Positions 25,718 to 52,920 of a stretch of DNA of 64,000 nt are shown here, in pieces. Source of the DNA: Parachlamydiales bacterium (GTDB taxonomy: Bacteria > Chlamydiota > Chlamydiia > Chlamydiales > JAJFMK01); assembly GCA_963765145.1 (NCBI GenBank), contig CAVXVG010000026.1:1-64000 (forward strand). The letters are read 5' to 3'. The position numbers and the translations under genes are program-made. The number at the start of each line of letters is the position of its first letter. Position 1 is the first letter of the stretch. Under the pieces are notes generated by a model. The model saw only the letters and a program-made list of their open reading frames with translations, searched no databases and was not told the origin of the DNA.

Positions 25718-28700
25718 TTAAAATAAATAAGTAAGTTCAATTTTCCCTTCATTTTCACTGTAGCGATTGCCAAAAGAGCCGCTATAGTTGAAGGCCACAT
25801 CAAATCCGAGCGAACTTGATATCCCAAAGCGGACTGTGGGCCTTACCAAGGTATGGTGAGGTTGTATCCCTTTCACATGAAAGATGCAATCATTGTCTAC
25901 AAAACTTGCTTTGGTTTTTTGTCCTTGGAAGCGGAACATCCCTACATAGGCGACATCCACTTCAATGAAAGCTTTTTCTCCACTTAAGATCGAACCTGCA
26001 TAGCCACAGCCAATACCAGATTCCGGCCGTAAAAGGTCTGCTGTTTTTTCTTGAACCTGAAGGCTTAAAACGCCCCCATTTTGTTCTGTAAATTCTTGTT
26101 GCTTAATCCATAGGTAATCGATGTCTAAGTAAGCCAAAAGATAAAAAGGCGTGTGGTTAACAAATTGCTTAGAGATACCGCCAAGATGGGCTGTGTAACA
26201 TTCTCCATCGCCCTTGAATGTCAACTTTCGATCGATTGGTGTAGTGCTAGCAGCTGGAAACGGGGAGCCCGCAGTTGGCAAGTTTGGCTCAATGAAAATC
26301 GAACGAGAGCCTTTTGCCGCATGCAGTGTATAACTTCCATATGCATCTACGATGAGGTTTGTGGTTAACCAAGAGGCCCCAATATAACCTGTGTAACTAT
26401 CGATAGTGCTTTTGGTAGGGGCATGGCTCCAATTCACACGGCTTCTTGCGTACGAAAAACCGGCACTTGCTATTAGATCGGGGTCTAAAAATCGGTCAAA
26501 TCCTAACAAAAATCCACTAAAAACATCGTCGTAACCGCTTCTTGAAGGAATCGGATCAAACGAATCTTGGTGTACCTTTTCTCCGAAGAAGGTGACAAAC
26601 ATATCGTTTAAAAATTCTGGGTCGTAAACCCGCTCGTAGATGTGCTGTGTATAGGTGTTTCTCACTTTTTCAGAAACCGATTCTTCTGCAAAAGATAGCA
26701 CATTGTAAACCGACGGATCTAATTGACTAAAAGCAGCTGGTAATTGACCCACTGTCAAAGAATTCAATGTGTCTAGAACACTGATCATATCGGGTGTTTG
26801 ATTGAGGGCAGCCTGATCGAAGCAGGCTGCAATATTTTGCAGATTCCCTGAACGTAACAGTTTGGCGTAGGGGACGAAGCTTACATCTAACAATACTGCT
26901 TGAGGCAAATAGAGCGTTGAAATAGTTAAACGAGGTGTTTGATAAAACAGAGGGGCAAATTGACCTGTTACCGAGCCTTCAAGCGACTGCACGACAACGT
27001 ACTGACCTGCAAAGGTTGGGTCAATTGTAGCGACGAGGCGCGCTGTTGGATCGATCGTTACATCTCCGACGGACAGCAAATTGCTTCTATTTGTCCGATC
27101 GGCCAACACTTGAAGAGTTGAATTTGGATGGAAGATCACATTACCGGCTGTCAAAGTGCCTACACCATTTCCAGGAGATACAGTGCCTGAGACATTCAGC
27201 GTGTTTGTCATGGTACCGGTTCCGTGCAAGGTTGTACCTGCATGGACAAACACGTGGCTCATCAAGGAGCCATTTAAGACAAAAGCCCCACTTGAGATGT
27301 TCGTTGGTCCTGAATAACCGCTGATTCCATTGAATACAAGTGTTCCCAAACCTGTTTTAGTTAGCCCTACATGACCAATTCCTGCTGCATTCCCATTTAG
27401 CGTGGTTGTTCCGGCTTCGGTGTGAATGGTTCCGTTTTCTGCTAAAAGGAGGGTATTAGGCAGATTTGTGTTGCCTGTCAGCACAAGGTGTCCATTGGAT
27501 TTCAAAATGATGACGCCCTTTCCAAGAGGTGCATTTCCAGCTGTGACAAGTGTTCCCGAAGTTAAAGTTGTTGGGCCGGTGAAGTGGGTGTTGTTGGTGC
27601 TGAAGACAGTTAAAGTTCCGCCGCCATCCAACATGAATCCACCGGATCCGGAAAGAGGGCCTGAAAAGACAGCTGTGTTATTGAGTAATAGATGGGCGGC
27701 TTTGTTAAAAGCGAGAGGCCCTGAAAAAGCACTTGGACCAGTTAGTGTGATGTGTCCGCCGTTGAAGTTAACAGGGCCTGCTCCTAGCGGGTTAGTTCCG
27801 GTTGTTTGGATTATGATACCACCTGTAACGGTAGTTCCTCCCGTATGGAGATTTGAATCTGTCAGATTCAAAGTGCCTTTACCATTGTAGGTGAGGTGAC
27901 CTGAACCTGTAATGTTGCTTGAAAGCGTGTTTAAGGCGCCTGTCTGCACGATCGTGCCTCCATGCCCATCAAGCCTCATTGGATTGGAGTAGGTGGCTGA
28001 GGTGCTATTTAAAGTGAGGAGTCCGCCATTAAAGAGAATATCTCGACCATTCAATTGATTTGGGCTGCTGAGTTTAAGGTTGGCGCCAGTTTGTATGCCA
28101 AAAGTCCCTGTAAAAGTAGAAGTGTCTACATAGGTTAGATCAACTGTGCCTATATCGCCCTCATTCTGCCTTCCAGTTATTGCTAAAAAGCCGTTTCCTG
28201 AAATAGAGCTTGGTCCGTTTGCCGAAAAGCGAGAGCTTGTGCCTGCTTCGAGGATAACAGTTCCGCCTGCTTCATTAACGACAAGTTTTATAGGTGTCGC
28301 GAAAGGAAGGCTGGCTAGAAGTGCTAGAGCTCCTCCATGAAAGTTGACTGTGCCGGCTCTACCAAGGCCATCAATCTGATCAGTGGCTAGAGTGCCGCTG
28401 ACTAAGTTCCATTCTCCTGTATAGCTAGAGTTCTGTCCTAAGAGATTAAGGATACTGCCGGCTCCTTCAAGAGTTATCGGACTATTGCCATTAATACTAC
28501 CTGTAATCGTATTGACCGATTGGTTGGTCATTTGGATGGTGGCGCCGTTATTGAAAGTAAATCCGTTAGGGTAGTTTCCTGCTCCTGTGAAGGAAATCTC
28601 GCCGCCTTCATAATAGAACTGATTTGATGAGTCACCAAGTGGGTTTTGCCCGGAAGTTTGGATCATTCCACCATCTTGTAGATAAAATCCGCCTGCAAAG

Positions 28701-29395
28701 AAGTTTCCGTCAGAACTGTCTAAAATGAGAGAACCTGGACCGCTGAAACTAAAGGGTGCGCTTGCTTTAAGTTGCCCTGTCAGTCTAGTAGTTGCTCCTG
28801 ATGGAATGACAATGGGTTCTTGCCCAGCAGCGACTCCTAATAGATCAATGCCATTTGATAAATGCGTTGTGCTGTTGGCCGGAAAACTTAGAACTCCTCC
28901 AAAAATAGTGATCTGCCCTGTGCCGAGAGGCTGTCTGCCAGAGACGTTTAGAACCCCGCTATCAATTTGCACCCCACCTTTGAAATGTGTCCCTGCGTCA
29001 TTTGTAATTGTTAAAAAACTACTTTTATCTGCTCCACCAAAGATGAGGGTGCCGGAACCTAGTATAGGGCCAGAAAGTGTGTTCGTAGTCCCACTGCCAG
29101 ACCTAATTGTTCCGTTGAAGGGAAGGTGAATAGCATTAGAATACATATCACTGCCAACTAAATGGAGGACCGAATTGCCATTGTCGACAAAGGTAATTGG
29201 CCCAGCTTTAAAGGATTGGTTAGTGATTGCCTCTTCTGCAGACAGTTGGTTACTTACAAGGCAGCACAAAGTGAGAAGAAAAGGGGATGCAACCTTCTTT
29301 GCTTTCTTAAACGGATCTAGATCACCCCCGCTCATAAGAAGAGAGAGAGGTTGGAATCGAGTCGAAGTGACGTGTATTTGTTTTCTTTTGCTCAT
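25718..29395 (-). CDS. Autotransporter AT3 (no poly-Gly domain)
   Basis: Beta-strand repeats (LTKTGLGTLVFNGISGYSGPT); barrel homologous to its neighbours; ends IELTYLF. Confidence 0.9.
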   Translation of the reverse strand: MSKRKQIHVTSTRFQPLSLLMSGGDLDPFKKAKKVASPFLLTLCCLVSNQLSAEEAITNQSFKAGPITFVDNGNSVLHLVGSDMYSNAIHLPFNGTIRSGSGTTNTLSGPILGSGTLIFGGADKSSFLTITNDAGTHFKGGVQIDSGVLNVSGRQPLGTGQITIFGGVLSFPANSTTHLSNGIDLLGVAAGQEPIVIPSGATTRLTGQLKASAPFSFSGPGSLILDSSDGNFFAGGFYLQDGGMIQTSGQNPLGDSSNQFYYEGGEISFTGAGNYPNGFTFNNGATIQMTNQSVNTITGSINGNSPITLEGAGSILNLLGQNSSYTGEWNLVSGTLATDQIDGLGRAGTVNFHGGALALLASLPFATPIKLVVNEAGGTVILEAGTSSRFSANGPSSISGNGFLAITGRQNEGDIGTVDLTYVDTSTFTGTFGIQTGANLKLSSPNQLNGRDILFNGGLLTLNSTSATYSNPMRLDGHGGTIVQTGALNTLSSNITGSGHLTYNGKGTLNLTDSNLHTGGTTVTGGIIIQTTGTNPLGAGPVNFNGGHITLTGPSAFSGPLAFNKAAHLLLNNTAVFSGPLSGSGGFMLDGGGTLTVFSTNNTHFTGPTTLTSGTLVTAGNAPLGKGVIILKSNGHLVLTGNTNLPNTLLLAENGTIHTEAGTTTLNGNAAGIGHVGLTKTGLGTLVFNGISGYSGPTNISSGAFVLNGSLMSHVFVHAGTTLHGTGTMTNTLNVSGTVSPGNGVGTLTAGNVIFHPNSTLQVLADRTNRSNLLSVGDVTIDPTARLVATIDPTFAGQYVVVQSLEGSVTGQFAPLFYQTPRLTISTLYLPQAVLLDVSFVPYAKLLRSGNLQNIAACFDQAALNQTPDMISVLDTLNSLTVGQLPAAFSQLDPSVYNVLSFAEESVSEKVRNTYTQHIYERVYDPEFLNDMFVTFFGEKVHQDSFDPIPSRSGYDDVFSGFLLGFDRFLDPDLIASAGFSYARSRVNWSHAPTKSTIDSYTGYIGASWLTTNLIVDAYGSYTLHAAKGSRSIFIEPNLPTAGSPFPAASTTPIDRKLTFKGDGECYTAHLGGISKQFVNHTPFYLLAYLDIDYLWIKQQEFTEQNGGVLSLQVQEKTADLLRPESGIGCGYAGSILSGEKAFIEVDVAYVGMFRFQGQKTKASFVDNDCIFHVKGIQPHHTLVRPTVRFGISSSLGFDVAFNYSGSFGNRYSENEGKIELTYLF

Positions 29396-29398
29396 AGT

Positions 29399-32300
29399 TT
29401 AAAAAAGGTAAGTGAGTTCCAGTTGTCCGCCGTTGTCGACATAGTGGGATCCAAAAATCCCTGTGTAGTTAAGTGATAGACTAAAATTATAGAGATTCGC
29501 TGCCCCAATTTCGATGGAGGTCGTTACAAAATTTTGTTGGGGGAACAGGCCATAAAGCTGGAATTGGCACGCATCGCCTGCAAATGTTGTAGGGGTTCCA
29601 CGGCCTGAAAAACGGAATTCATGGACATACCCGATGGTTGCATTTGCAAAGAAGTTGTTCATTTCGTAGGCCGAAAATAGATACCCAATTCCAATTCCTA
29701 CCTCTGGACGTAAGAGGTCGCTTGTTTTGGATCGGAGAGCCATGTCGAGAACGCCTCCACCTTTTTCTTCAAACGTGTCTTGGCTTACGACAAAGTAGTC
29801 AAGATTTGCAAAAGAGAGGAAAGAAAAGCCAGCTTGCAATGGATCAGCATACAATCCGCCTAAGTGAAAGGTGCCGCTGTCAGCATGGCTTGTCTCATAT
29901 AACTTCCGATCGATGCTTGCCCCAAACATTTCGAATGGAATGTGGCTGTTAACAGGGGGTGTAATTAAGTTGGTTGGAGAAATGTAGATTTTTCTGTGGC
30001 CACGAGCTTCGTGATAGGTATAGCTCATGTAACCATCGACAGAAAACTTTTGTCCAAACCAAGTGGAACCAAGAAACCCGGTATAGCTTTTGACACCGCT
30101 TGAGGCATTCACCTGATTCCAATTGGCTGCACTATGGCCATATGAAAAACCTCCGGTGACTAATAGGTGATTTAAAGCCCACCCGTCAATACCGGTTACA
30201 AACCCTGTTAGGTGGTTATCATATCCACTTTGTCCTCTATCGTTGCCCAATCTGTGTTGGTGGATGCTTTCACCAAAACCTGTTCCCCAAACTGACCACA
30301 AGGCATCTCCCTCGAAACGTCTGTTTTGTGAGTGAGAGGTGTAAATGGCTCTTGTCCTATACATGACCGCTTCTTCTACATAGGTAATGGCATTGTAAAA
30401 AGAGGTGTCAAATTGAGCAAAGGCAGACTCTAGAGCTGATGGAGGCAGAAGGTAAATGACTGCTGATACAGCCGTTAGATCGGAAGAAGTTGGAAGCGTG
30501 GCAAAACATTCTGCAATGTTGAGCGCATTGCCTCTTGGTAGTAGAGCACTAAACGGAGTTTGAGTGACCGACAGCAAGATCGAATCGGAATTTTGAATCA
30601 ATCGAACTGGAAAAAGAGCTGTACCGGAATAACCGAGTATAAATTGAGACCCTGAAACAAGGCCTTGAGCAATGGTGTAAGTTTTTGGCAAAAATGGATC
30701 GAGAAATGGATCTAAAATCGCATTTGGCATGATGGTAATAGAAGTTGTATCAAGCATGCTTGTTAAAGAACCATCGGCAGTTGGTCTGAATACAGATCCA
30801 CCTTGAAAGGTCACCTGTTGCGCATGCAAAGTGCCTGTAGAGTTGCTGTCGCCAGGTCGTAAAACTCCGATGACATTCACGTCCCCGACGTTACCGGTCC
30901 CTTTTAAAATAGCGCTTGGGTTGATGGTGATAGGACTTGAAGTTAAAGAACCATCCACCACCAATTGACCCTTCGCTATTGTTGTAGCACCTGTTAAAGA
31001 GCTGGAGCCTGAAAGAACAACTGTTCCTTCACCCTCTTTTACAAAGTTTCCACCGCCGGATAATTTTCCACCTAATTTAGCAGTTATTCCTCTAGGTGTG
31101 GTGATCGTTGTGCCGGCAACGAAAGAGATGTCAGGATTCAAAAGACCATTGTCGATCCATTCTAAGCTTCCACCATTCAAAACAACAGATCCGGTTCCCA
31201 ACGGGCTTGGTCCAGACACTTGTAAAATCCCATTCGAAAGAAAGGTTCCTTCACTGTAAGAGTTATTACCGGTAATGACTGTTGTGCCAAGCGAGTTTAA
31301 AGTCAGGGCACCAGCACCCGAAATGTGACCAGTAAAGATACCTACAACATGGCTTGCAGAGTTAATGACACCATTGGAGTTTATTTGGATAGGTCCAGTG
31401 AATGTTGTTTTTCCAAGTAGGTCGAAATGGCCACCATTCAACGTAAAAAGACCTGTTCCAAGTGGGTTAAAGCCTTGAACGTGTAAATTTCCACTGTCCA
31501 ATGTGACGCCACCTGCAAAGGTATTATTTCCCACAACGGCAAGAGTTCCATTGCCAGAGTGTGTAAATCCACCCGGGCCAAACAGAAGTCCGGTTAGGGT
31601 ATTACTTGTTGCATTTGCAGAAGAAATGGTTGAGTGGGATGCAAAAGTCATCGGCTGCGAGTAAGTGTCGCTGCCTATTAAATGCAGAGCGCTGCCCGAA
31701 TTGAAAATGACATTGCCAGAACCTAATTGATGGCTTTCACTGCTAGTCAGTGTTGTGTTTGTAAGGGTGATACCACCTGAAAACGAGCTGTTATCAGCAG
31801 ATAATCTAAAATCACCCGGACCTTGCAACGTTAAACGTTCGGGGCCTGACAAAGAGCCTGAAAAGGCGTTTGTTGTAGCTGTTGCACTAGAAACGATCGT
31901 CCCCTTATTGGCCATGATCAAAGGATTGCTATAGCTTGATCCTGTCATCAGGTTTAAAAAGCTTGTGCATCCGGCACTGTTCGTAGAGAAGGTGACAGAG
32001 CCTGTTCCCAATGTTCCTGAATCACCGAGTTGAAGGGTAGTTCCCTTTAGGATGGTGTTTCCATAACTTGCAGGAGCAGTGAGGGCCAGAGTCCCTCCGT
32101 TTCCATTCGTGTCTACAAGGGTCAATGTTCCTGCGCCTGTGACTTGGCTAGAAATAGTTGTTGTGCCTGTAGGCAATTGAATGGTGCCGTTTCCGTCCAG
32201 TGTAAAAGTACGTTCTGAGAATGCCACCGGCGAAGACAAAATAAGCGTTCCGTTACCGGTGGAGAAAGTAAAGGGGCTTGCAGATAGGCCTAAATTATTA

Positions 32301-35300
32301 TCCGAGTCAACAATTACGGTTGCTCCATCAACGAGAACAGTTCCCCCCGATTGTGTGTTGTCCGCTGTCAAAATGACCGCGCCGGGTCCGGAAAAAGCCA
32401 AACTTCCGAGCCCTGAAACTGGACCTGAAATCGTGCTAGAAGTAGAAGGTGCAAGGGTAATGGTCTGATTGCCTGCTAAATCGATAGCATTGGCATAACG
32501 GCCGTCTTTAACAAACTGTAAGGAACCTCCGACTGTACTTCAACGTTCCGGTTCCCAATGGATTGGTTCCAGATGTTTGTATCGTTCCAGCCTCAAAACT
32601 GGTTCCATCAGCGTAGGTGTTGTTTGATAAAACAAGCGTTCCGTCAGGACTATTGAATAACAAACCACCGGAACCGGATAAACCACCTGTGAATGTAGCT
32701 GTATGGCCACTGCCTACAAGTATAGGGCTATTGGCGAGGTCAAAGACCACAGGATTAGAGAAGGAACTGTTGCCAGTCACTTCAAGGCTGCCCCCATTCC
32801 ATCTAATTTGTCCAGGCCCTATTGGGTTGATGCCACTCAACTGCAATGTTCCACCGGCAAGAGTGATTGCGCCTTTGAAGCCTTTGCCATTGGTCAGTGC
32901 AAGGGAACCAGACCCATTTAGTTCAAAAGGAGTGTATCCTGTAAATGCCCCTATAATGGCATTAGAGCCTCCACTTAAACTGATGGTTGAAAGGCCGGAG
33001 GAAAGGGCAATGTTATTTGTAAAAGTGTCACTGCCAGATAGATTTAAGGTGGAGCCGTTCAAGAAAATAGAACCGGTTCCCAATTGGCTTTGATCGGCAG
33101 CGCTCAAGACCACGCCATTGCCTACGGTAAAGCCGCCTGCATAATTTTCGTTGTTTCCTGCTAAAACAAGCTGTCCGCCATCAGACCCAGTAATGTGTAG
33201 AGCTGAGCCTGAAAGGATCCCGCTCCATGTGTTGGTCGAAGAGCCTACATTTAAAAGGGCTGAACGTACTGCTAGCGCTTGATTGAAAGTGCTGCTGCCC
33301 GTTAGATGAAGCTCTCCTTTTGCCATAGCAATAGAGGCGCCCCCTAAATTTGAACTGTCTTCTACTTGCAGAGATCCAGATATTACAGTGATGAGCCCTG
33401 TGTAGTCTGTATTGTTTCCTGATAGCTGTACGGTGCCGGGGCCTGCAAAGTCAATGTTGCCTGAGCTTGTGTTGATATTTCCAGAGAAGGCGCTTGTGCC
33501 AGATTGTGCAGTGATAGTTGTCGTCGGAGCATTGGCAGTCCAGCTGTTGGCATAGGCTCCATCTCCTGTTAGAACAAGGTTTGTGCCGTCGAGGATGACA
33601 GTGCCAACTCCTATTGGATTTGTTCCCGATGTTTTAAGTGTGCCGGACTGAAGGTCAAATGTTCCGCTAAAGGGTGTGTTTGTGCCTGTTAACTGCAATG
33701 TTCCTGGGCCCTGATAAGCAATTGTAGTGGTGTTATTTCCATTAATAATACCTGCATGGGTGCTTGTAGAGCCATTATCTGCTTCAATGGTTAATGATGA
33801 TTGATTAGCAAGATACAAATCGTTACTAAAGATTGCGCCACGGTCAAGGAGATGGAGAGTGCCTTGATCAAAATGAAGAGGGCTATTTGAAAGGGAGTTG
33901 GTGCCCAATATACCTAATGTGGCCCCATTGACTTGCGTTTGACCAGAGAACGTGTTGTCGCTGCTTGTGACGTGGACAGCACCCGGACCGTTGATTGTGA
34001 GAAGTGCACTTCCTTCGATCAAGGTAGATGGGCCAAATTTACTAACAGTTCCTGTATGGGTTTGTAAGGTGACAGGACCATTTAAAGTCACCGAGCGGTT
34101 TTTATAAGTACCGCTGCCAACAAACTCAAGAGAGTCATTGAGTGTGAGGTCTCCGACGCCGAAAGGGTTAGTTCCAGATGATTGGAGGGCAGTCGCGCTA
34201 ATATCGCCAGTGTAAGAGGTGTTGTTCTTAGTAGGGGTAAAAGCTAATTTTCCTTCTTTAGATGTTGCCTGAATGGCTCCAGATCCACTTAAAGATCCGG
34301 TCAATGCGCTATTTCCTGAAGTTGCTGTCATAGCGACCGAGTTTGCAGCATGGATGACACTCGGAAGATTGGTTGACGCAAAACCTATCTGCGAAGCCGA
34401 AGGACCAATTTCAAGAGTAGATGAGGGGCCGATGGGTTGATCACCAGAGAAGTTTAATTGGGCAATATTGTTTAACAGGGTTCCTGAATAGGTTGTCGAA
34501 CTGTTTGCACTGATTGTCGCAGTGCCTTTACCTTCAAATTCTAGTTGTGCAGTTCCGGTGATAGGGCCAGAGAAACTTGCGCTAGAAGAGGGATCGATAA
34601 CGATCTGACCGTTGCCTAAAATATTGGTTAGACGAGCGGTATTGAGTGAAGAACCTGATTTGGAGACATGAATACTTGCTACTGAGTCAGATGATGAGTT
34701 GGGCAAAAAGGTGATGGGCCCAGTTGCTGCCCCAAAACTTTCATCGCCACTCAATGGGTAGACAGTTGCCCCTGGGCTAATTTCTGTTCCACCTGAATAG
34801 GTGTTTGCAGTTGAGGGTTTTAACCTATAATCGCCAGTTCCGGAAAGGGTCACTTTTCCTGGAGTTTCTCCATCTTGAATCAATCCTGTGGCTTGGAATT
34901 CAGCATTGTTTTTGAATGTGCCTTGCCCTGAAATAGTAATAGTTCTTGCTGTGGTCAAGTTGTCAGACTGTAAAGTACCCCCATTTAGGTGAATAGGGTT
35001 AGAGGCCAAGCCTAAATCTTGATCCGAATGAAAAGCTAAAGTACTGCCAGAGCCAACAGTCACTGTTCCTGAATAATTTCTATTTCCAGGCCCAGCTGGA
35101 AGGGTTAAAGTGCCTGTCCCATTGACGTTGAGACCGCCCGAAGATAGTGATGCTGCGCCCGGCGCGCGAGCACCTCCATCGCCCCACAGATCAATTGTGG
35201 GATTTGTGTTGGTCATGTTGACAGTCAAAGTAGAGCCTGCTGTCATGAAAACGTCTTGTCCTAGACCGTGTCCAGAAGAGGCTTGCTCGATGCCGTTGGT

Positions 35301-36842
35301 TCCGCCTTTGCCCCCTTCAGCCCTGTTCGAGCTAAAACGGCAATCATTTAAGACGACAGTGACGGCTTCAAGAGGGGTGGTACCCGAATCTAAGTAGAAG
35401 GTACCTCCAAGGCCAGCACCACCGCCGCCACCACCACCATAGACCAAACCTTCTGAAGTTTGGACAATCGCTCCTTGCCCACCACCAAAACCAGCGGTGG
35501 CAGCCGCAGCGGTTGAATAAGGGCCCGAACCGCCACCACCACCCCCAAATCCACCAGCGCCGCCAGCGCCAGATGATGTTGAAGCTGTTGCAGAGCCACC
35601 GCCACCACCACCACTGTAGACGCCGCCAGTGCCTCCATTTCCGGAAGCAGTTTTGCTATGGCCACCACCGCCGCCGCCACCACCACCATATGTGTAAACA
35701 CCTGTAGGGGAGTTACTATTCCCTCCATGCGAAGAACCAGCTACTTTGTCGCTTGTGCTTCCAGAACCGCCGCCACCGCCACCTTGGGCTGAATGTTCGC
35801 CGTTACTGACTTCATAGTTTTTATTCAAAACAAAATGGCCGCCAGCACCGCCTCTATCGGCAGTTTCAGAAGAGGTTCCTTCGGCTCCGATAAAATTGGC
35901 TAGGTTTGGGGGGAAAGAGGGGTTAATAGGTGGAGGCACATGCTGTCCGCTCACATGGTTTGAGGCTCCTCCGCCTCCACCAAAGCTTTCAGTGGAACCG
36001 CCCGGAGCAGAGTTCTCAGATTTTCCTCGAGGAATTCCCCCTCCACCACCGCCACCGCCGCCATAGCCACCGTTTGTACTACCTTCGGCGATCACGTTGG
36101 CAGTTTCACCATTTCCTCCGGCTCCATTCGGTCCGGCACCACCTCCACCGCCCTCAACAAACTTTCCAGAACCTGCAGGAGAGCCGGTATAATTGAAAGT
36201 TCCATCGCCTCCCGCACCCCCTTGAACTGAGTTGTTAGAAAAAGTGGTATTAGAGTAGGTCGTAGTTCCAGTGCCAGGGCTGATATAAGCAAAGCCACCT
36301 AACGCAGCGCCTCCGCCTCCGCCTGCTGCCCCATTACCACCCGAGGAGCCTTGTGTGGAGAAGTTCTGAAAAGTGACGTTTGCAATGTTTAAGTTCTTAG
36401 AAACTGCCCCAGCGGCATATTTATTTTGACCATCAATGACAGCAGGTTTATCACCGCCCCCAATGATTTTGAGTCCTTCTGCCGATATGGGGGGAAGAGA
36501 ACTTTTTAACTGAATCGGCTGAGTGGTTTTGATGACAATCGTATGTTGTTGATTGGGTTTCTTTTGGGCCCTTCTAATGGCATCGCGGAACGTTCCGGCG
36601 CGAGGAGCTTCTTTTAAATGCTCTGCATAATCGCCGGCATTCGTCACATAGAAAACATCACTTGAGGCTGCTTGTGGTGCAGCAAGGGCAAGTAAAGTTA
36701 GGAGAAGGGGACAAGTTTGCGACTCGCTAAATAAATCTCGCAGAGAGGGTTTAGGAGCTGTTTTTTCTTTCCGTTTTGATCCGATTCGATGACCCATTTT
36801 TCCCCAAGTCCTGATAACAACATTGTGTGGAGAATAGGACAT
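29399..36842 (-). pseudogene. Giant autotransporter AT4 (~2480 aa) split by one +1 frameshift near 32531, possibly a sequencing error
   Basis: Removing one base in AGTCGGA gives KYSGGSLQFVKDGRYANAIDL...GSLAFSGPG, fusing ORFs 32508-36842 and 29399-32401; ends LELTYLF. Confidence 0.85.
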
Positions 36843-37055: not shown

Positions 37056-40000
37056 TTAATCGCCAATAACTTCTTGAATCGGACGGTTTAAAGCGTCGTA
37101 TAGAATCTTTTTCGATGAGCCATTAGGGAGGATAATCTGTGCCAATCCATGAGCATTATTATACCTATAGTGGGTCACTCCTCCTTCAGCGTCGATGATT
37201 TTGGTAAGGTTATAGTTCTCATCGTATTCTAAAATGGTTTCATATCCGTTGGCATCTTTAATCCAAATCAAATTGCCAACTTCATCGTAGTTATAGCTGA
37301 CGTGACCCACTGGACTCGATATTTCTATGACTTGATCTCGTTCATTATAGGTATATTCGAATCTCCCTTCTGTATCGTCAATACTGCACAACCTTGATCG
37401 GTTATCAAATTTTCTTCGAATTTTATATCCATATGGATCAGAGATTTCTGTTAATCTTCCTTCAACGTTATATGAAAAGAGCTTTGCCAACTCATTTCCC
37501 TTTTTAATCGCTGTCACGGTTCCTGTCTGGTCGTCAATCTCATATTCAACTGCTTCAATGGGCTCATAATGAAAGGTAGTTTGGCCAGAAGTAAGATCTT
37601 CACTTATTAAATAGCCGTAGGGAAAAAAGCTCTTAAGCCGCCCTTTTTCATCGTAACGATAGATTTCCGCTCTCTTTCTTCCATCCAGTGCAGCATTTAA
37701 TCGATTCGAGGTTGGATCATACCAGAACCTTTTTTCTATCCCTGCGCTGTTTATGATCGAAATGAGGTTTCCGTTACGGTCATAACCATATTTTGTTTCT
37801 TGGCCAAAGCCATTTTTTATTAGCGTGGGTTGGATGACGCCATTTTGATAGGAAATTTCAATGTGACGACCGAATGAGTCATTAGATTTTAGCAGACGAT
37901 AATTGGAGTCGTATTGGTTAAAGACATTTAGATGATTAGGTCCTTGTATCCGCTCTGCGTGATCTTTTAAGCTGAATTCTTTATTTATTTCTGTTGCCCC
38001 ATTCGTTAGCGTGATAGCACGGTGGTAGTTATCATAGGTGGCACCAAATAGCACTCTTTTTTTGGCGTCGTAAATTGCATCCAGATTTTTCTCAGAATCA
38101 TAGCTATAGAAAACTATTGGACCAACTTGGTCAGCGACTGAATAGAGTTGATTATTTGCATCATACTGGTAAGAAATAATTTTTCCACCAGGTCCGATAC
38201 TGCGTGCAATTCGTTCATTTTCGTATTCTAATTGGATTTTTTTGCCATTCCGGTGGGCCATGGCTATCAATCGATCGTTATGATCGTAGGTATACTCAAT
38301 ACCTTGCCCCTGCTTATCAACTTTTCGGAGGAGTTTTCCTTCACTGTCAAAAAACATTCTAGCATCTTCTTTATGCAAAATAAAGTTCCCTTTTTCTTGT
38401 TCCTCAAGAACGAAGGCCAGCCCATTTGTCGTGTAGATTGGCAAGGACTTCAGGTTAAACCCGTGCAACCGATAAACAAACTCTCTTCCCTCGTCAGAGA
38501 CAAGGATGTCAGGAAATACATCTCTTACAATATTTCTCTCTTCCCATTTAAATTGTCCTTTTCCCCTACGAAAATGTAGTGATGAGGAATTCAATTCCCA
38601 GCCCTTACCAAACCCGGAAGAACGCTCATTAAATGAATTGTAATAACGGACTAACTCAAAGGGGAACTCTCCTGAAAGGTGGAAACGCATGTCCGTAAAT
38701 GCTTTTCGGATGTTGCCGATTTTGAGCGTACGTTCAACAGTGTGTGCGATGGCTTTGAACCCGTTGCCGAACGAACGATCCATATCCCACGCCATTTCAT
38801 TTTCTGAAGGTCTTGAATAGAGGACACTTTGTTGCAAAGCGTCAGGTGCAATACCACAGACTTGACGGAAGTTGCCTTCAGATAGCTGGAGAGCAACTCC
38901 TCCGATTATGTGCCTGATTTCAGGTGGTCTAGTATAAAGTGAGAAAATCGCAGGGGTAGCCGAGGGTGTCAATGCGTCTTTTGGTATATAGTGACTGAAT
39001 AAAGAAAGATCGAGTGGAATGCTGTTTTCTTGCATCCATTTGACAATGGCAGTTATTTTTCCAAGATGTTTGAGTTCAATCAAAATCGGATAGAGTTTAG
39101 CAAACTCATCGAAATGATCGGTAAAATGTTTTGCAAAATCCTCTAGAGCAACATTATCTTGTTGCCGGTTATTTCGCTTAGATTCCGTCAAAACCTCCAT
39201 CTCTGCTCGATCAAATACAATGGAGTTGCCGTCTGCAGTCTTTGTCAGAACAACATCTTTCGGCACAAACCACATACGATCAAAGAAACTGGAATTACGT
39301 TCCATCTTGAGTTGCTTATTGGAGTATCTATTAGGAAGGGAAATGAATCCACGAACGTTAGGCTTCAATTCTTTTTTTGTAATATTGTCCTTTCCATTAC
39401 TAAGACACTTTAGTAATCTGTCGGCCTCAAACATGACCTTGCCAAACCGAGTCCCTTCTGTTACCCCTTCATAGCGGACTACCATGGGAGAGAGACGATT
39501 AAAGTCGAATTTTTCAAGTTTTGTTTTATTGTCGGGATTCCAATCGATGGAAACACCAGGGTTCTGTGGCGGCTTTCCTCCAAGCCCGTAAATCGAGCGC
39601 ACAGCGACCGCAAGGTCATCAAAATCCATGGGCGGCAAGGAATAATTTTGAGAGCCAACTAAGATCAATTGTCCTGATACGGGGTCATAAGTAGCGCCAA
39701 GAATGTCTGAAAGCGTTCCTATAAGCTGCGCTGTCTGATCAAACGAGACACCGCCAAGGTCACCTGAAGAAACCGCACTAATGGGGCAAGTAGGTTTAAC
39801 TGTTGAAGGCCAGAAACGGTCAGGGTCTGCTACGAACCTCATATCTTGTTCCATGGCTTTTTTAAAGTTGTCTTGTCCGTTCAAGCTCTCCAACCAGATA
39901 ACCGCCTTTGAAGGGGTTGAAACTCCCATTACATTAAAGCTTGGATGCTCAACTCCTAAAACTTCTAACCCTCTCTCCAGCCCATCAATGCAGTTCCCAG

Positions 40001-41726
40001 CAACACCTAAATAGCTTCCTTGTTTAATTACTTTTACTATTTCATTAATTTGTTTATCTGTTGCAGGCCACTCGTAATAAGCAGTATTTGGTGTTAATTC
40101 ATCTATTTCACGAGGGCCACCAGGATACCTTCCCACAGTCGTCTGCTCGCCATTATCTTTCGTTAGAACCCAAAATCCATGCCCAGTAAGGGATTCGCCA
40201 TGAGTTGTCATAGTACCTGCTGGATAGGCACAGGCTTTGGCGGATCTTAACCCCAATGGATCTATGAAATTCACAGGGTTGTTATCGGCGTACGCATAGG
40301 GGTTAAAAGTTTGGGGGTTACTTAATTTTCCAAGACTTGGATCGGCCGATATAAACCTCCCAATCTCGGGGTCGTAGTATCGGTTCCTAAGAAACACTAA
40401 TCCGGTTTCCATTTCATAGGCTTCACCGGCATAGGTAAAAGGATTAGGAGTTGTAGAAATAGACCCACTAGGCAAGCCAAATGCTTCGTAATTATAGATG
40501 TTACAAAATTGTTCTCGTTCATTTATTAGTCCAATAACGTTTCTATCGGGATAGTCGTAAAGGTAAGAATAATAGCCGCTAGGGCTTACTTGAGTTAGCC
40601 GTGACAGACCATAGATGTACAACATTTTTGGAATCTTTTCCTCTGTTGTTTCGAGCAGAACTTGTGTTATTGGTGAGCGTGTGTCGTTGATATAGAAAGT
40701 TTTTTCCCCGTTTACCGTTTTTGAAATACGACGACCTTCACCGTCGTAGGAATATTGAATGTTATAGGTATGATCTCGATAGGAAATTAGATTGTCGTGA
40801 ACATCATAAGCATACTCCACGGTTTTATTCGGGCTTTGTTTTTTAATTAAATTCCCACGGTCGTCGTAGGACAATTTGTTTTCACTATATTTTTTTAATC
40901 GATTGTTTTCGTCATATTTGTAATGGATCAAACCTAGGGAAGTTTCTTTTGTAAGGCGGTTGCCAAGATCGTCATAGGTATATTTTTCAAACCTCTCTGG
41001 ATATTTTACATAGACCAGTCGATTGAGTTTATCGTAGGAAAAATCGATAACTTTAGAGCCTCTTTTCCCAGTTTCGACCGTACGGATCCGATTACCATTT
41101 CCATCAAAGAGGTACTGAAAACCTGCAATGAGTGTTTTATCAGAATGTCTATGGGAGATTGAGATAATTCTTTTGGCTTTGTCATACCCATATTCGGTTG
41201 TGACTCCTGTGGGAAGGATGATTTTAGAAAGGGTATTATTTGCCTGATCATAAATGTATTCCGTTTTGCCTTGAGGCGAATCTACAGACACTAAGCGATC
41301 AGCGGAATCATAAGAATAGGAAACTAGGTGCCCGCTAAGATAGAGGATCTGGTGGATGCGACCTCTAAGATCATAAGAATAACGAACATGGACTGTGTCG
41401 TCCCTAGCCACATTAACTAGCCGATTCAAAAGATCATATTCATATTTGGTCACCCCATTTTCATCATTTACCTGAAGGCAATTACCGTTCACATCGTATT
41501 GATAACTAAAAACTTTCCCATCCGAATCGTCGACTTTAACAAGTTGTTGCATCTGGTCATATTCGTACTCAATAGAACAGTTATCAGCTGGAACGACCTT
41601 TTTCAAATTGCCAGCTTCATCGAACTCAAAAAAACGGTAAAAAGCTGTAGCTTCTATTTGGAGACAAAAAAACCAAGTAAACACACAACAAAATCCAAAA
41701 AATTTATAGATTTTATCTAAAAACAT
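37056..41726 (-). CDS. Rhs/YD-repeat protein with permuted domain order
   Basis: Signal-like N-terminus; YD repeats; core RYYDPEIGRFISADP...PYAYADNNPVNFIDPLGL at about aa 450-493; DUF6531-like FELVRYYNS...GFGKGW at about aa 1010-1045; YD repeats to the C-terminus. Confidence 0.9.
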   Translation of the reverse strand: MFLDKIYKFFGFCCVFTWFFCLQIEATAFYRFFEFDEAGNLKKVVPADNCSIEYEYDQMQQLVKVDDSDGKVFSYQYDVNGNCLQVNDENGVTKYEYDLLNRLVNVARDDTVHVRYSYDLRGRIHQILYLSGHLVSYSYDSADRLVSVDSPQGKTEYIYDQANNTLSKIILPTGVTTEYGYDKAKRIISISHRHSDKTLIAGFQYLFDGNGNRIRTVETGKRGSKVIDFSYDKLNRLVYVKYPERFEKYTYDDLGNRLTKETSLGLIHYKYDENNRLKKYSENKLSYDDRGNLIKKQSPNKTVEYAYDVHDNLISYRDHTYNIQYSYDGEGRRISKTVNGEKTFYINDTRSPITQVLLETTEEKIPKMLYIYGLSRLTQVSPSGYYSYLYDYPDRNVIGLINEREQFCNIYNYEAFGLPSGSISTTPNPFTYAGEAYEMETGLVFLRNRYYDPEIGRFISADPSLGKLSNPQTFNPYAYADNNPVNFIDPLGLRSAKACAYPAGTMTTHGESLTGHGFWVLTKDNGEQTTVGRYPGGPREIDELTPNTAYYEWPATDKQINEIVKVIKQGSYLGVAGNCIDGLERGLEVLGVEHPSFNVMGVSTPSKAVIWLESLNGQDNFKKAMEQDMRFVADPDRFWPSTVKPTCPISAVSSGDLGGVSFDQTAQLIGTLSDILGATYDPVSGQLILVGSQNYSLPPMDFDDLAVAVRSIYGLGGKPPQNPGVSIDWNPDNKTKLEKFDFNRLSPMVVRYEGVTEGTRFGKVMFEADRLLKCLSNGKDNITKKELKPNVRGFISLPNRYSNKQLKMERNSSFFDRMWFVPKDVVLTKTADGNSIVFDRAEMEVLTESKRNNRQQDNVALEDFAKHFTDHFDEFAKLYPILIELKHLGKITAIVKWMQENSIPLDLSLFSHYIPKDALTPSATPAIFSLYTRPPEIRHIIGGVALQLSEGNFRQVCGIAPDALQQSVLYSRPSENEMAWDMDRSFGNGFKAIAHTVERTLKIGNIRKAFTDMRFHLSGEFPFELVRYYNSFNERSSGFGKGWELNSSSLHFRRGKGQFKWEERNIVRDVFPDILVSDEGREFVYRLHGFNLKSLPIYTTNGLAFVLEEQEKGNFILHKEDARMFFDSEGKLLRKVDKQGQGIEYTYDHNDRLIAMAHRNGKKIQLEYENERIARSIGPGGKIISYQYDANNQLYSVADQVGPIVFYSYDSEKNLDAIYDAKKRVLFGATYDNYHRAITLTNGATEINKEFSLKDHAERIQGPNHLNVFNQYDSNYRLLKSNDSFGRHIEISYQNGVIQPTLIKNGFGQETKYGYDRNGNLISIINSAGIEKRFWYDPTSNRLNAALDGRKRAEIYRYDEKGRLKSFFPYGYLISEDLTSGQTTFHYEPIEAVEYEIDDQTGTVTAIKKGNELAKLFSYNVEGRLTEISDPYGYKIRRKFDNRSRLCSIDDTEGRFEYTYNERDQVIEISSPVGHVSYNYDEVGNLIWIKDANGYETILEYDENYNLTKIIDAEGGVTHYRYNNAHGLAQIILPNGSSKKILYDALNRPIQEVIGD

Positions 41727-41738: not shown

Positions 41739-42239
41739 TTATTTGGTGTAAAGGGCAATCCACTTAACTTGGATAGGTTCCGGCAACTCATCATCATCAT
41801 AAAAAACTACTCTTCCTATTGGGGTGACAAATTCCCGAAAGGGGACGTTATTTCTTGAGTTGATAGGATCTAAGATAATATCCATTTTCCACCAATTAAT
41901 GTTGTCAATGCTATAAGCCAAAGTTCCCCATGCCAAAGCTCCTCCATCATTTTTAATCCGGAGTGCAACATTAACAGTATGATGGGAAAGTTCTTTATTT
42001 GTAGGTTGCTGAAGTTCTATTTCAGGGTGACTTAAAGATTGAATGACCTGCTCATCGGTTAGAAGGTAGGGTTTTATTTCAATTTTTTTAGCATAGCCCG
42101 GGTTCCAAAACATCATCCGGACAAGGAAGAACTGTTTGTCCCCAGTAATTGTATCTTTAACTTCATAGAAGGCTAGGGCCCCCAATACGATGGCAAGTAT
42201 GATAAAGCTTAGTGATGGTTTTTTCATTTTTACTCCCAC
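41739..42239 (-). CDS. Membrane-anchored/exported hypothetical protein in the Rhs operon
   Basis: KKP plus a hydrophobic helix at the N-terminus; ends 12 nt before the Rhs start. Confidence 0.7.
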   Translation of the reverse strand: MGVKMKKPSLSFIILAIVLGALAFYEVKDTITGDKQFFLVRMMFWNPGYAKKIEIKPYLLTDEQVIQSLSHPEIELQQPTNKELSHHTVNVALRIKNDGGALAWGTLAYSIDNINWWKMDIILDPINSRNNVPFREFVTPIGRVVFYDDDELPEPIQVKWIALYTK

Positions 42240-42562
42240 AGAATCATTTCGCCATTCTTAAGGCAGAGATAAATTTTGTCTTTCTTGCGAGGTGTTCCTG
42301 CAGTAGTAGTTTGGATTGTGATAGTGAACCCTTCGGAAGGTGTTTCTTTTAATAAGTCTTCAATTGGGGGTGTAGAAGAGACAGGCGGTTCCTTAAAAAC
42401 GATGTTTTTATTTTCTAGGACATCTGAATGGTCTTGTTGTTCTGGGGGAACGACGATAATGTTTTCGAAAAGGGGCCATTGTATCGGCTCTTCTAATTTT
42501 TCTTCCGAGAAAGCGGGCACTGTTAATAAGCAGCAGGCCAATCCCATTATATAACGTATCAC
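42230..42562 (-). CDS. Signal-peptide hypothetical protein in the Rhs operon
   Basis: GGAGAG RBS with GTG start; LACCLLTVPAFS signal; overlaps the next gene. Confidence 0.65.
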   Translation of the reverse strand: MIRYIMGLACCLLTVPAFSEEKLEEPIQWPLFENIIVVPPEQQDHSDVLENKNIVFKEPPVSSTPPIEDLLKETPSEGFTITIQTTTAGTPRKKDKIYLCLKNGEMILWE

Positions 42563-44874: not shown

Positions 44875-46146
44875 TTAACGGAGTTTTTCGAAGAGCTGCT
44901 CAAGCATAATATAGGTGTGCGCGATTTGTTCTAAAAACGATTTGTCTTTTAATTGATCGATCGAAAGTGTGTCTGGATAATATTTTTCGATGAGGTTTCC
45001 GATTAATTGAGATCTCGTAGGATCCATCCAGAAGCAGTTGGGGATCATTTTTTGCTCTAAGCCGTTAAGTAGTAATCTTAGTCGAAGGCAAGCAGGACCG
45101 CCTCCGTTCTTCATACTTTCATTCAAAGAAATGTAACGAACTTGAGAAAAATAGGGGAGTTTCTCGATGTAGCTTTTAACTTCAGCATCTTCCGAACATT
45201 CTTGAGGAGCTAAAAGAGCCCTTCTACCAAATGGAAGTGATAATATTTGTGAATTGAAAAAGTAGGTTTTAATCGCTTTTTGCAAGGGAAGATCTTTTTC
45301 AGAAACAATATGAAGTGAGAGGTGTTGCTGGTAAAGGTCATAGTAAGTTGAAGCAATTAGGTCAAACGCATCCTTATTTTTGAATGTTTTTTCATGGGCT
45401 AAAAACAGATTCAAATGTCCTACGCTGATCACATCGTTATGGAATACCCCTTCATCGATCACTTCAGGGTTTTGTTCTAAGATAAGGACACGCTCTTTTG
45501 GTAATTGATGCAACCGTGCAATGGACTCTGATGCAAGCTTTGCTTGACGAGCGGCGAAACGATGGGTTTGGTCTCCGTAAACAAAAAGGTGTAGCCCTTG
45601 AGTGTCTGGAGTTGGGGAGAGTCTTGTGTGGTTGGCAGCCCCCTCATCAAATAACTGCCTAACTGAGGGGAGGGCAGCATGCAGAGCAAAATAATCGGGG
45701 TGTGCCATGAGCTGTTGAAACATTCTTGTCGTATCAAGCACCTCTAAATGTCTGTGCAAGTTGGAGCCCAAGTTGGCCGGAGTGATGTGGTGTTTTGAGT
45801 CGAGTGTGTCAAGCGATGGGGTAGAAGTGGCAACGTTAGCAGTCCACATAAAGGAGGAGGAAAAAGCAGCCAATAATAATTCAGGACACTTGTCATAAGC
45901 ACTTGCCACAGTTTCAAAGCCCACCCTTTTTAAAAAAGAAAGATCAGGACGCTTTTGAGGGGGGAAAAAAGCTTGTGGTACGCCTAGTTCCATGACCACA
46001 TTCATTTTTTCAAGTCCTTGAAGGGCAGCTTTTTTGGGCGAAGAGATAATCCCTTTATTTTCCATGGAGGCAATATTGCCTAAGGAAAGGCCTGCAAAGT
46101 GGTGAGTTGGCCCCACTAATGTATCAAGTTGCACTTCTGTGTACAT
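44875..46146 (-). CDS. astB: N-succinylarginine dihydrolase
   Basis: LVGPTHHFAGLSLGNIAS, DEGAANH, GVFHNDVI, ESMKNGGGPACLRLR. Confidence 0.93.
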   Translation of the reverse strand: MYTEVQLDTLVGPTHHFAGLSLGNIASMENKGIISSPKKAALQGLEKMNVVMELGVPQAFFPPQKRPDLSFLKRVGFETVASAYDKCPELLLAAFSSSFMWTANVATSTPSLDTLDSKHHITPANLGSNLHRHLEVLDTTRMFQQLMAHPDYFALHAALPSVRQLFDEGAANHTRLSPTPDTQGLHLFVYGDQTHRFAARQAKLASESIARLHQLPKERVLILEQNPEVIDEGVFHNDVISVGHLNLFLAHEKTFKNKDAFDLIASTYYDLYQQHLSLHIVSEKDLPLQKAIKTYFFNSQILSLPFGRRALLAPQECSEDAEVKSYIEKLPYFSQVRYISLNESMKNGGGPACLRLRLLLNGLEQKMIPNCFWMDPTRSQLIGNLIEKYYPDTLSIDQLKDKSFLEQIAHTYIMLEQLFEKLR

Positions 46147-51934: not shown

Positions 51935-52920
51935 TTTAACCTCAAATATCTAACGGTATCTTCTTCAGTTAGTTTTAAACACTCAAAGGCAACGCTCGGG
52001 ATGGCTAATACACTGTCGGCAAGTTCTTCTACAGTTGCTTGACAAGCTAAAAAAGTGCCGGATGTCCGTGCAATCAAGGATCGGAAACCATTTTCGGGTT
52101 CCTTGTTTACAACTCGTGCTACTTTTGCCTCTCGTATCGATTTGATCCCAAGCAGAGGTGCTTGCACGCGAGGCCCTCCATCTAACGGATGAATTTCATC
52201 CGTGATATGAAAACCCTCTTTGATCAAAAGTTGCAAAGCCCCTTCCGATTTTTCATGAGGAACTCCTACCACGTCTCGAACCTCTTTTGGCAGAAGAGAG
52301 AGATAAATGGGGTGGCTTGGAAAAAGAGGGAAGAGTTCTTTTGGTTTGGTTCGGTAAATCTCTTCGATCTCTGCAAAGCTCAAAGGGCAAAAGGTTTTTC
52401 CAATCCCTTCCCAAAAGATGGAATGCCCTTCGTGGCTGATGACCCCTCTGATGTCGGCAAAAAGAGAGGTTTCAAAACGGGATAAGTGATCGGCAATATA
52501 GAGAAGCCGCCCTTTGGATAGAAGGTGGCCAATCCCTTTAGATTGAGCCGATTCAGCCAAAACAAGACCGCAGAGTTCACTTGCTCCATCTCTGTCTGCA
52601 TGCAGCTCAAGCAAGGTGGAGTCGTGCGGATGGGGAATGGTCACATCGGGCAGAGGCTCTACGACAATCCGAAAGGTGGGGGCAGGAGAGCCAACTGCCG
52701 AGATAGCAGACGTGCCGACGACTTTCCTATTTTGAGTATCTTCTAAACTGAACAGGTAGCAGCCGGTAGGATTGCTAGAATCACTTGCAAAAGAGGCAAT
52801 CGAGTGTTCGATTTTTTTCAACATCTCCTCTTTTCTGGTTGGCAAGCTGGTCATGCCAACCTTAGATAGTTCTAGGAGTTGATCGATGTCCTCTAACTTT
52901 GCTTCCCGTAATAGGTACAT
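51931..52920 (-). CDS. astA: Arginine N-succinyltransferase
   Basis: GMTSLP, SELCGL, LLSKGRLLYIA, ADIRG, DGGP. Confidence 0.9.
   Translation of the reverse strand: MYLLREAKLEDIDQLLELSKVGMTSLPTRKEEMLKKIEHSIASFASDSSNPTGCYLFSLEDTQNRKVVGTSAISAVGSPAPTFRIVVEPLPDVTIPHPHDSTLLELHADRDGASELCGLVLAESAQSKGIGHLLSKGRLLYIADHLSRFETSLFADIRGVISHEGHSIFWEGIGKTFCPLSFAEIEEIYRTKPKELFPLFPSHPIYLSLLPKEVRDVVGVPHEKSEGALQLLIKEGFHITDEIHPLDGGPRVQAPLLGIKSIREAKVARVVNKEPENGFRSLIARTSGTFLACQATVEELADSVLAIPSVAFECLKLTEEDTVRYLRLK

Follow-up and report, generated by a model that had tools for sequence, protein, structure and literature searches.

The first 64,000 nucleotides of the Parachlamydiales contig CAVXVG010000026.1 (the window, which lies on a 291-kb contig of a 2.68-Mb genome that is 84.8% complete) contain a single open reading frame (ORF) on the reverse strand, at positions 37056-41726, that encodes a 1556-residue Rhs/YD protein (P0001) whose parts stand in permuted order. 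From its N-terminus, the protein reads signal peptide, second half of the YD shell, Rhs core, payload, DUF1598-like domain, DUF6531 plug and first half of the shell. An earlier reading made from the letters of the window (the sequence-only reading) had proposed that this order is circularly permuted and represents an undescribed system. Our results indicate that the protein belongs to a real and widespread variant of Rhs/YD toxins that apparently has not been described before.

Profile searches bore out the ORF, the core motif and the DUF6531-like motif of the sequence-only reading, and let us place each part (all on the reverse strand). Homologues used throughout were the 50 full-length proteins (1500-1580 residues) among the first 68 matches of a search with residues 640-1060, which returned 93 proteins in all. 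A Sec-type signal peptide is called at residues 1-26 (41649-41726) by our own heuristic (a basic residue plus a hydrophobic stretch) rather than by SignalP, with a boundary set where the hydrophobic leader ends, just ahead of the first YD strand; the same heuristic called a signal-like N-terminus in 43 of the 50 homologues, most misses resembling short start calls, in agreement with the leader noted earlier. The N-terminal YD block (residues 27-412; 40491-41648) corresponds to the canonical second shell half by profile alignment to the unpermuted relative P0089. It is followed by the Rhs core (residues 413-493; 40248-40490), which TIGR03696 matched at 79.3 bits against a cut-off of 32.5. The core contains the aspartyl autoprotease residues R449, D462 and D489, of which both aspartates are kept in 50 of 50 aligned homologues and the arginine in at least 90%; its DPLGL motif occupies residues 489-493 (40262-40248), and a DPxG-type motif is present in 104 of 122 permuted proteins. 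By analogy with L2144 of a bacterial teneurin-like protein (BiTLP; PMC13018210, cited here and below for the available part of its text), the core is expected to cut after L493.

Downstream of the core are the payload (residues 494-633; 39828-40247), a flexible linker that may serve as a peptide tether (residues 634-657; 39756-39827), the DUF1598-like domain with an invariant GG at its start (residues 658-997; 38736-39755) and a plug region (residues 998-1110; 38397-38735) containing DUF6531 (residues 1011-1047; 38586-38696), which PF20148 matched above its gathering score (30.7 bits against 24.1). The C-terminal YD block (residues 1111-1556; 37059-38396) corresponds to the canonical first shell half by profile alignment to P0089 and to split half-genes. 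RHS repeats flank core and plug on both sides (15 stretches by PF05593 and 12 by TIGR01643) and reach to 8-13 residues from the C-terminus in 49 of the 50 homologues, as expected from the earlier observation of YD repeats at both termini. Solved Rhs shells matched both YD blocks in a comparison with the PDB; the cut-off of NF041261 (the NCBIfam RHS element core protein) was not reached (171.5 bits against 2000). The protein thus has the long repeat run, the core with an arginine and two aspartates, and the variable payload after the core that define Rhs/YD polymorphic toxins. It lacks the C-terminal payload with a plug ahead of all repeats and the immunity gene directly downstream that define canonical Rhs proteins.

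Comparison with unpermuted relatives revealed how the two shell halves belong together. P0089 consists of a signal, the middle (i.e., DUF1598-like) domain, the plug, the block that is C-terminal in the window protein, the block that is N-terminal there, the core and a C-terminal payload. A profile of residues 27-493 aligned to residues 929-1393 of P0089 (359 bits), and a profile of residues 998-1556 aligned to its residues 389-915 (model positions 7-527 of 556); the last 29 positions of the latter were left unaligned in P0089, and the alignment to split half-genes was full-length. The shell measures 1027 residues in the window protein and 1009-1017 in the 5 of 40 unpermuted proteins that are free of insertions. 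By eye, the last and first mature residues of the window protein matched the two strands of one YD repeat in seven unpermuted proteins; the break lies within a single YD repeat, and almost no residues were gained or lost. The earlier claim that joining the C-terminus to the N-terminus would restore the canonical order is thus sustained by P0089, which holds both halves end to end, and by the equal shell lengths. By these alignments, the window protein is a true circular permutation of the Rhs/YD shell.

Rhs repeats are prone to misassembly, and no read or contig spans the junctions of the window gene; one soil read run yielded three short contigs at least 99% alike, none of which crosses a junction. 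A misassembly or recent accidental fusion of two rhs genes, the danger that the sequence-only reading had itself named, was not borne out. Domain order was kept in all 50 aligned homologues. A profile of the middle domain matched 4808 clusters at 50% identity, the best 150 of which were pooled with the 93 proteins above into a set of 228 proteins ranked by likeness to the chlamydial queries, so that proportions within it are no census. This set held 110 permuted, 27 unpermuted and 52 partial or otherwise arranged proteins, together with 23 that begin at the middle domain without a core and 16 that have only the core in front. The 110 permuted relatives, at 25-70% identity, were assembled independently, some of them on megabase contigs. 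Across 94 permuted proteins, one YD block correlated with the other in identity (Spearman 0.845), and G+C content at third codon positions was even along the window gene (0.34-0.41, with no compositional step). Because independent homologues keep the order and the two halves co-evolve, we regard misassembly and recent fusion as excluded on comparative grounds, with almost no probability left to either.

The permuted order occurs in genomes of Chlamydiae, the Olavius symbiont Delta 1, Marinimicrobia and Anaerolineae, and the closest relatives of the window protein are chlamydial. Within the phylum, the DUF1598-like domain was present in 25 of 401 genomes (two of them with weak matches); the 30 genomes of family f4 (those listed being 1.0-1.2 Mb) and the one other genome of the same genus gave no match. 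No relative of the system was found on viral contigs. Some permuted members are giants of 3600-4900 residues (P0128, P0142, L143, L144 and L132), with a duplicated N-terminal YD block in P0128, L143 and L144 and long immunoglobulin-like (Ig) and BACON tails on P0128 and P0142. Another permuted copy (L049:5107-9126) has a degenerate core and lacks both a payload and an adjacent partner gene.

Relatives also open the shell elsewhere. Unpermuted single chains are found in Peribacteria, Saccharibacteria and Daviesbacteria (Candidate Phyla Radiation, CPR), several of these genes being followed by small downstream genes and orphan core-payload cassettes. Two-gene forms are split at the same junction, either in canonical order (L077, L127 and L141) or in swapped order (L068 and L126). 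A second break point lies ~225 residues earlier in P0127, P0137 and P0139, where the junction used by the window protein is intact, and the permuted chain is split again just ahead of the core in L131 and L146. For a shell that is a closed spiral, breaks at three sites and export as separate pieces are to be expected. We built two trees, one of the DUF1598-like domain (203 sequences, midpoint root) and one from 167 columns of 178 core-region sequences, with 9 canonical Rhs proteins as outgroup. Both placed the unpermuted clade inside permuted lineages, with support of 0.216 at one key node, and are compatible with either several permutations or a return to the canonical order. Unpermuted CPR-type shells carry insertions of 200-800 residues within the second YD block (L091, L093, L094, L095, L087 and L092). 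A split first half (signal, Cys, DUF1598-like domain, plug and YD block) is encoded by cultured Enterovibrio nigricans DSM 22720 (L084:7839-10811), on a contig that ends directly after it.

The split forms also raise the question of whether the YD blocks that pair come from one chain. They show that halves can assemble in trans, Rhs dimers have been reported (PMC13018210, in part), and closure of the monomer is deduced rather than taken from a model, all of which could fit domain-swapped dimers or chains, or fused half-genes whose products do not pair within one molecule. In the window protein, however, the chain runs from core to plug without interruption, an arrangement that makes closure within one molecule more likely; the two halves together are as long as a canonical shell, and the break, which lies inside one YD repeat, added or removed hardly any residues. 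We therefore consider closure between different chains improbable.

We found that the unpermuted relatives carry a distinctive cysteine pattern. After removal of near-duplicates, 40 unpermuted proteins were left, 39 of them with a parsable GG motif. In all 39, a cysteine lies at most 35 residues before the GG and after the signal peptide (median distance 17; background 54 of 520 windows), and the middle domain itself has no cysteine. Among 39 unpermuted payloads of at least 60 residues (P0147 was dropped as truncated), which fall into 19 sequence clusters, 37 have an odd number of cysteines and 30 have exactly one. One even case, L091, is a misparse at a contig edge, which leaves 37 of 38 complete payloads odd; the other, P0189, lacks the N-terminal Cys as well and has two cysteines in its payload. 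By a Poisson estimate, 19 independent clusters would all be odd with a probability of ~5e-7, a figure that ignores scaffold kinship. Orphan cassettes at unpermuted loci were odd in 10 of 11 cases (the miss is a misparse), as were the payload genes of the split pairs L068, L077 (truncated), L126, L127 and L141. The N-terminal Cys was present in the partner half of L068, L077 and L127; L126 and L141 are incomplete at the 5' end. In a further split pair, L138, the payload has two cysteines; this pair may derive from a permuted gene by frameshift. As a separate observation, the domain-plus-shell region has exactly two cysteines in 30 of 38 unpermuted proteins.

The permuted proteins have lost this pattern. 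A cysteine precedes the GG in 17 of 118 of them, which is the background level (280 of 1527 windows), permuted payloads of non-papain type have no cysteine in 32 of 47 cases and an odd number in 10 of 47, and core-first payloads were odd in 0 of 8. At both swapped-order split loci, the geometry of which is nearest to the fusion, the cysteine stands two residues before the payload end. The simplest reading is that a disulfide between the payload and the segment ahead of the DUF1598-like domain is swapped for a peptide bond where permutation makes the two neighbours. A comparable disulfide, between payload and plug (C2216-C719), has been observed in a BiTLP (PMC13018210, in part). The cysteine counts thus make it probable that unpermuted and split relatives link payload and DUF1598-like domain by a disulfide, the tether being a family feature that permutation has hard-wired, and support the earlier proposal that the payload stays tethered to the second half of the protein. 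A Cys499-Cys647 pair, considered as a conserved bond of the permuted form, was present in only 6 of 50 homologues and was rejected as a family feature.

The payload lacked any relevant Pfam or PDB sequence match with a 34-sequence alignment. An AlphaFold2 model of residues 494-1010 (62 sequences; mean predicted local distance difference test score, pLDDT, 87.3) consisted of two folded domains joined by a disordered linker (pLDDT below 50 at residues 639-659). The best structural match of the first domain was TseH (6v98; Z 10.7, root-mean-square deviation 2.6 over 114 residues, 10% identity), followed by YiiX, an RID domain, a deSUMOylase, a 2A protein and PLAAT4; the six rows after TseH mostly belong to the same superfamily. 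His516 (40179-40181) precedes Cys579 (39990-39992), and both were invariant in 34 of 34 and in 50 of 50 aligned sequences. On this model, the payload is a TseH-like permuted papain (NlpC/P60) fold. The permuted NlpC/P60 group is described as lipid-targeting, with membrane-associated immunity proteins, and phospholipase activity has been shown for Tox-Act1 and, in one assay, for TseH (PMC12994826, available part). By analogy, the payload would be an acyl-hydrolase or acyltransferase acting on the envelope.

The sequence-only reading had held that the permuted order rules out the exchange of toxin tips, which did not hold up. The payloads of 100 sufficiently complete proteins (out of 119 non-redundant permuted proteins) formed 33 clusters, one of which, of the papain type of the window protein, holds 59. 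No payload similarity was detected in 35 of 184 pairs whose blocks and middle domain are at least 45% identical, although some of these are divergent papain subtypes. Unrelated payloads sit on shells that are 62-82% alike; L143 and P0142, for example, are 69, 82 and 74% alike in the two blocks and the middle domain and have unrelated payloads. Tandem cassettes of core, payload and middle domain occur in L133, L142 and L188. These comparisons show that payloads are still commonly swapped in the internal slot; the sequence to either side of it is conserved, so that a double crossover could exchange them.

The ~300-residue DUF1598-like domain of the sequence-only reading was upheld in kind and corrected in length (~340 residues, 658-997). 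DUF1598 (PF07643) was not matched in the window protein itself; weak matches were obtained in 9 of 30 aligned relatives (best E 8.2e-5, over the C-terminal 40-45 positions of the profile), and nearly all missed the gathering score, which a tandem-domain relative, P0209, reached at 25.8 against 25. Folded alone by AlphaFold2, the domain reached a pLDDT of 87.5 and a predicted template-modelling score of 0.87. Its best structural match among 48,161 chains was at Z 3.5, with none reaching Z 5, and Foldseek returned nothing from the PDB at E 0.001, an absence that does not show a new fold. A domain profile found nothing relevant among PDB sequences, and the ESM Atlas gave no usable match. A resemblance to SPLUNC1/TULIP proteins (Z 3.1-3.3) was too weak to use, and a protease role was rejected for now, the alignments having no invariant His, Ser or Cys. 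The term DUF1598 did not occur in the papers searched.

The DUF1598-like domain also occurs in other settings. Several signal-bearing proteins of 870-1220 residues (P0190, P0202, P0203, P0222, P0223, P0144, P0199 and P0209) have tandem copies with few or no YD repeats; some keep DUF6531, and we read them as a shell-less branch of the family. A DnaJ domain replaces the signal peptide at the start of the permuted bacterial protein P0154 (and, by likeness, of P0178 and P0191), and the fold matched a J-domain protein of Tupanvirus soda lake (BFVD A0A6N1NXY0; E 1.3e-9, template-modelling score 0.54).

Directly upstream of the Rhs gene lies a partner gene (41739-42227, reverse strand) encoding 162 residues with an N-terminal membrane anchor or signal, a candidate immunity gene. 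An exported-looking ORF of 110 residues (42230-42562, reverse strand) abuts it and is likely the first gene of the operon in the closest relatives; similar N-termini stand at the same place in L031, L032, L044, L088, L108 and L111. In most chlamydial loci, a partner of 150-185 residues with an exported N-terminus adjoins the Rhs gene upstream, often in 2-4 copies, and in the window genome two such copies stand next to one permuted Rhs gene each. Of 400 genomes, 35 carry the partner. These comprise 21 of the 23 genomes that match the DUF1598-like domain strongly and 14 that lack the domain. Loci of nine of these 14 showed Rhs remnants or a cut-off Rhs start in five cases, none in three and an unrelated canonical Rhs gene in one. 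The partner matched no Pfam family and no PDB entry, and the ESM Atlas gave unnamed clusters only.

We next compared the partner with the other parts in 24 non-redundant loci. Among the 24 pairs with closely related shells, partner identity tracked the payload (0.86) more than the N block (0.38), the middle domain (0.40) or the C block (0.53). L070 and L045, for instance, are 78-79% identical in C block and middle domain, but only 19% in payload and 27% in partner; L070 and L046 share 73% in payload and 75% in partner, so that payload and partner changed together between L046/L070 and L045/L128. These results suggest, with somewhat better than even confidence, that the upstream partner is an immunity protein.

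Two results point away from an immunity role. Over all pairs of the 24 loci, where both small proteins are near saturation, the partner tracked the N block (0.63) and hardly the payload (0.15; partial -0.2), and one partner copy precedes an unrelated canonical Rhs gene that has its own small gene downstream (L100). Both would fit a shell-binding anchor or export chaperone that replaces the Ig domains of non-chlamydial proteins, the payload then acting on a eukaryotic host. Chlamydiae live within eukaryotic cells. The partner N-terminus, moreover, is a membrane anchor, lipoprotein-like or a cleavable signal depending on the copy, and non-chlamydial loci gave no partner match and often have HYDIN/VesB-like Ig domains after the shell. 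(That the partner may be such an Ig domain split off was considered; 36 members gave no Ig match in Pfam.) An anchor or chaperone is, however, hard to square with the joint switching of payload and partner on a nearly constant shell, with tandem divergent copies and orphan copies, which are typical of immunity genes, and with retention of the partner by forms that keep the payload and lose the N half or the DUF1598-like domain (L076 and L107). We consider it rather unlikely.

Together, these data are best explained, in our view and with moderate confidence, by an Rhs/YD toxin capsule that is exported by Sec and whose shell wall is circularly permuted. After export, the C- and N-terminal YD blocks would very probably pair at their free ends to close one shell of ordinary size, with DUF6531 as the plug of one end and the core stopping up the opposite one. 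It is nearly as probable that the core then cuts after Leu493, so that the payload N-terminus would be freed inside while its C-terminus is held, through a linker of 20-25 residues, by a DUF1598-like domain outside. The domain (~39 kDa) is as large as the BiTLP cavity (44,000 cubic angstrom; PMC13018210, in part), and with the payload inside it must, by this reasoning, sit outside at the plug end. Perhaps, at a little under even confidence, the domain acts as a handle: on engaging the target, it would pull the payload through the plug to the outside, much as is proposed for the seal peptide of RhsA, which threads through the plug (PMC8765631, in part). In Chlamydiota, the payload would more probably than otherwise be a His/Cys acyl-hydrolase or acyltransferase that attacks lipids or lipoproteins in the envelope of competing bacteria, with the upstream exported protein as its immunity partner. 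We propose Sec export, shell closure and the core cut because of conservation and known Rhs chemistry, and the cysteine pattern supports the leash; how the payload is pulled out, what it targets and how it passes the outer membrane we infer.

Several observations weigh against this explanation. The closed shell is read from sequence and not from a structure. The disulfide stands on cysteine counts, in which related sequences share labels, and the lone cysteine is near the payload N-terminus in 24 of 30 unpermuted proteins (within 33 residues) and at its C-terminus in only 5 of 30, a geometry unlike that of the peptide tether, so that the leash need not be C-terminal. No second cleavage site was identified, though the payloads of the permuted relatives L069 and P0076, which by eye carry nuclease-like motifs, would need release. 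Payloads of 609 and 716 residues with degenerate cores (P0091 and P0093) are too big for encapsulation. The DUF1598-like domain, which 12 of the 228 proteins have without YD repeats, may not be a dedicated handle. The route past the outer membrane is not known; GspF-family genes are present in the genome, with no link to the system shown, as are DsbA-family genes.

The oversized payloads and dead cores would suit a different arrangement, in which the chain leaves the shell once past the core, and folding of the payload takes place outside beside the DUF1598-like domain, the shell being a scaffold that presents an enzyme (e.g., one that remodels lipids of the cell itself or of a host). In animal teneurins, the C-terminal region is not cleaved and passes out of the shell (PMC13018210, in part), the window payload models as a well-folded domain, and adhesin-like Ig tails are common among relatives. 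Moreover, the chlamydial forms L076, L140, L148 and L187, without the N half and core, keep the payload, the DUF1598-like domain and the partner genes. Such surface display leaves unexplained the invariance of the autoprotease aspartates and the wide retention of the DPxG-type motif; payload plus linker is mostly 115-280 residues among permuted proteins, which is capsule-sized, and payload turnover, orphan cassettes and a co-varying partner are marks of conflict systems. We therefore judge display unlikely and retain the capsule. A bolder version of the capsule proposal, which we regard as possible but doubtful, is that the DUF1598-like domain defines a self-contained delivery class, working without a type VI secretion system (T6SS) or TcA injector, whose payload is always leashed to this outer domain, by a reducible disulfide in canonical-order and split members or by a peptide bond in permuted ones, and is pulled out via the plug upon target binding or membrane insertion, with at least three break points and payloads exchanged as cassettes.

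The window protein shares features with several known systems. Like T6SS Rhs effectors (RhsA 7q97, 8h8a/8h8b, Tse5 8cp6, Tre23 7pq5 and Tse15 8uy4), it has a DUF6531 plug, a shell of similar length, a bipartite aspartyl autoprotease core and a small variable payload after DPxGL. It differs from them in its permuted order, its internal payload tethered at the C-terminus, a signal peptide in place of PAAR/VgrG loading, a 340-residue domain of unmatched fold before the plug and a candidate immunity gene upstream. The proposed independence of T6SS is supported: the protein has no PAAR or VgrG match, and VipB and VgrG were not found in the genome at its 84.8% completeness. Sec export without a T6SS is itself not new, being known from BiTLPs (9pt5/9ifo; PMC13018210, in the part available), which also share adhesin-like Ig domains, an encapsulated polymorphic payload, the absence of a known delivery machine and, in one protein rather than as a family rule, the disulfide from payload to plug. 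Teneurin-like proteins, according to the same part of that paper, instead have an FN-plug, an NHL propeller, a C-terminal toxin and a downstream immunity gene. The window protein has a DUF6531 plug and no NHL match, and its PDB match to 9pt5/9ifo was restricted to shell and core.

The BC components of Tc/ABC toxins (TcdB2-TccC3 and YenB-YenC2) likewise form a YD shell from two chains, the second with core and payload, and the split relatives L068, L077, L127 and L141 share this two-chain logic. The halves of the window family, by contrast, carry their own signal peptides, and fusion of C before B traps the payload between them; SpvB, TcdB and propeller domains were not matched by Pfam in the window protein, and no search was made for TcA. 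TseH (6v98) and Tox-Act1 (PMC12994826, available part) resemble the window payload in fold (Z 10.7), in the order of His before Cys and in a small exported partner gene. At 10% identity, the window payload has no family match at sequence level and sits inside an Rhs chain. By the domain tests made, the window protein is neither an effector of a T6SS nor a teneurin-like protein, and probably no Tc component either.

A literature search that did not extend to subscription journals found no permuted shell, internal payload, link between DUF1598-like domains and Rhs, or family-wide tether, so that the permuted variant, as the sequence-only reading supposed, is apparently undescribed; the supplements of PMC3482391 and PMC12994826 could contain the architecture. 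The string "permut" is absent from the available part of PMC13018210, as is "circularly permuted" from the first 300,000 characters of PMC3482391. An open question named in the literature is by what means Sec-secreted YD capsules, which have no injection machine, are opened and their cargo is delivered (PMC13018210, in part). The present family offers a concrete candidate answer for capsule opening, one conserved tether made by two chemistries, with unpermuted, split and permuted forms as a natural control series. It breaks the rule that Rhs toxins are C-terminal, and surveys of gene-end tips and downstream immunity genes would miss these payloads. It also gives a first functional context to a domain family of thousands of clusters without a matched solved structure, and a clear natural circular permutation whose fission and fusion intermediates still exist.

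In the same genome, eight long frames of Rhs type have the canonical order, their core lying towards the end, and one broken permuted copy is found on contig C27. There (C27:125862-130436, forward strand), a partner gene is followed by a decayed permuted Rhs gene in three frames, ~40% identical to the window copy and lacking the first ~170 residues of the N-terminal YD block. Chlamydial forms without a core (L076:7233-9632, L140, L148, L187 and L145) comprise a signal, a papain-type payload, the DUF1598-like domain, the plug and ~250 residues of shell; they adjoin 1-4 partner genes where the contig reaches, and the L145 frame begins just before the domain. Directly downstream of the window Rhs gene, three autotransporter-like frames occupy 25718-36842 (reverse strand). 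The nearest encodes a 1444-residue passenger (32508-36842) with PATR repeats and no barrel, and 29399-32401, in another frame, resembles its continuation; this autotransporter-type passenger is not conserved beside the Rhs gene in other loci. Elsewhere in the window, genes at 44875-46146 and 50621-52920 (reverse strand) resemble, by their motifs, a succinylarginine pathway set (dihydrolase, aldehyde dehydrogenase and N-succinyltransferase).

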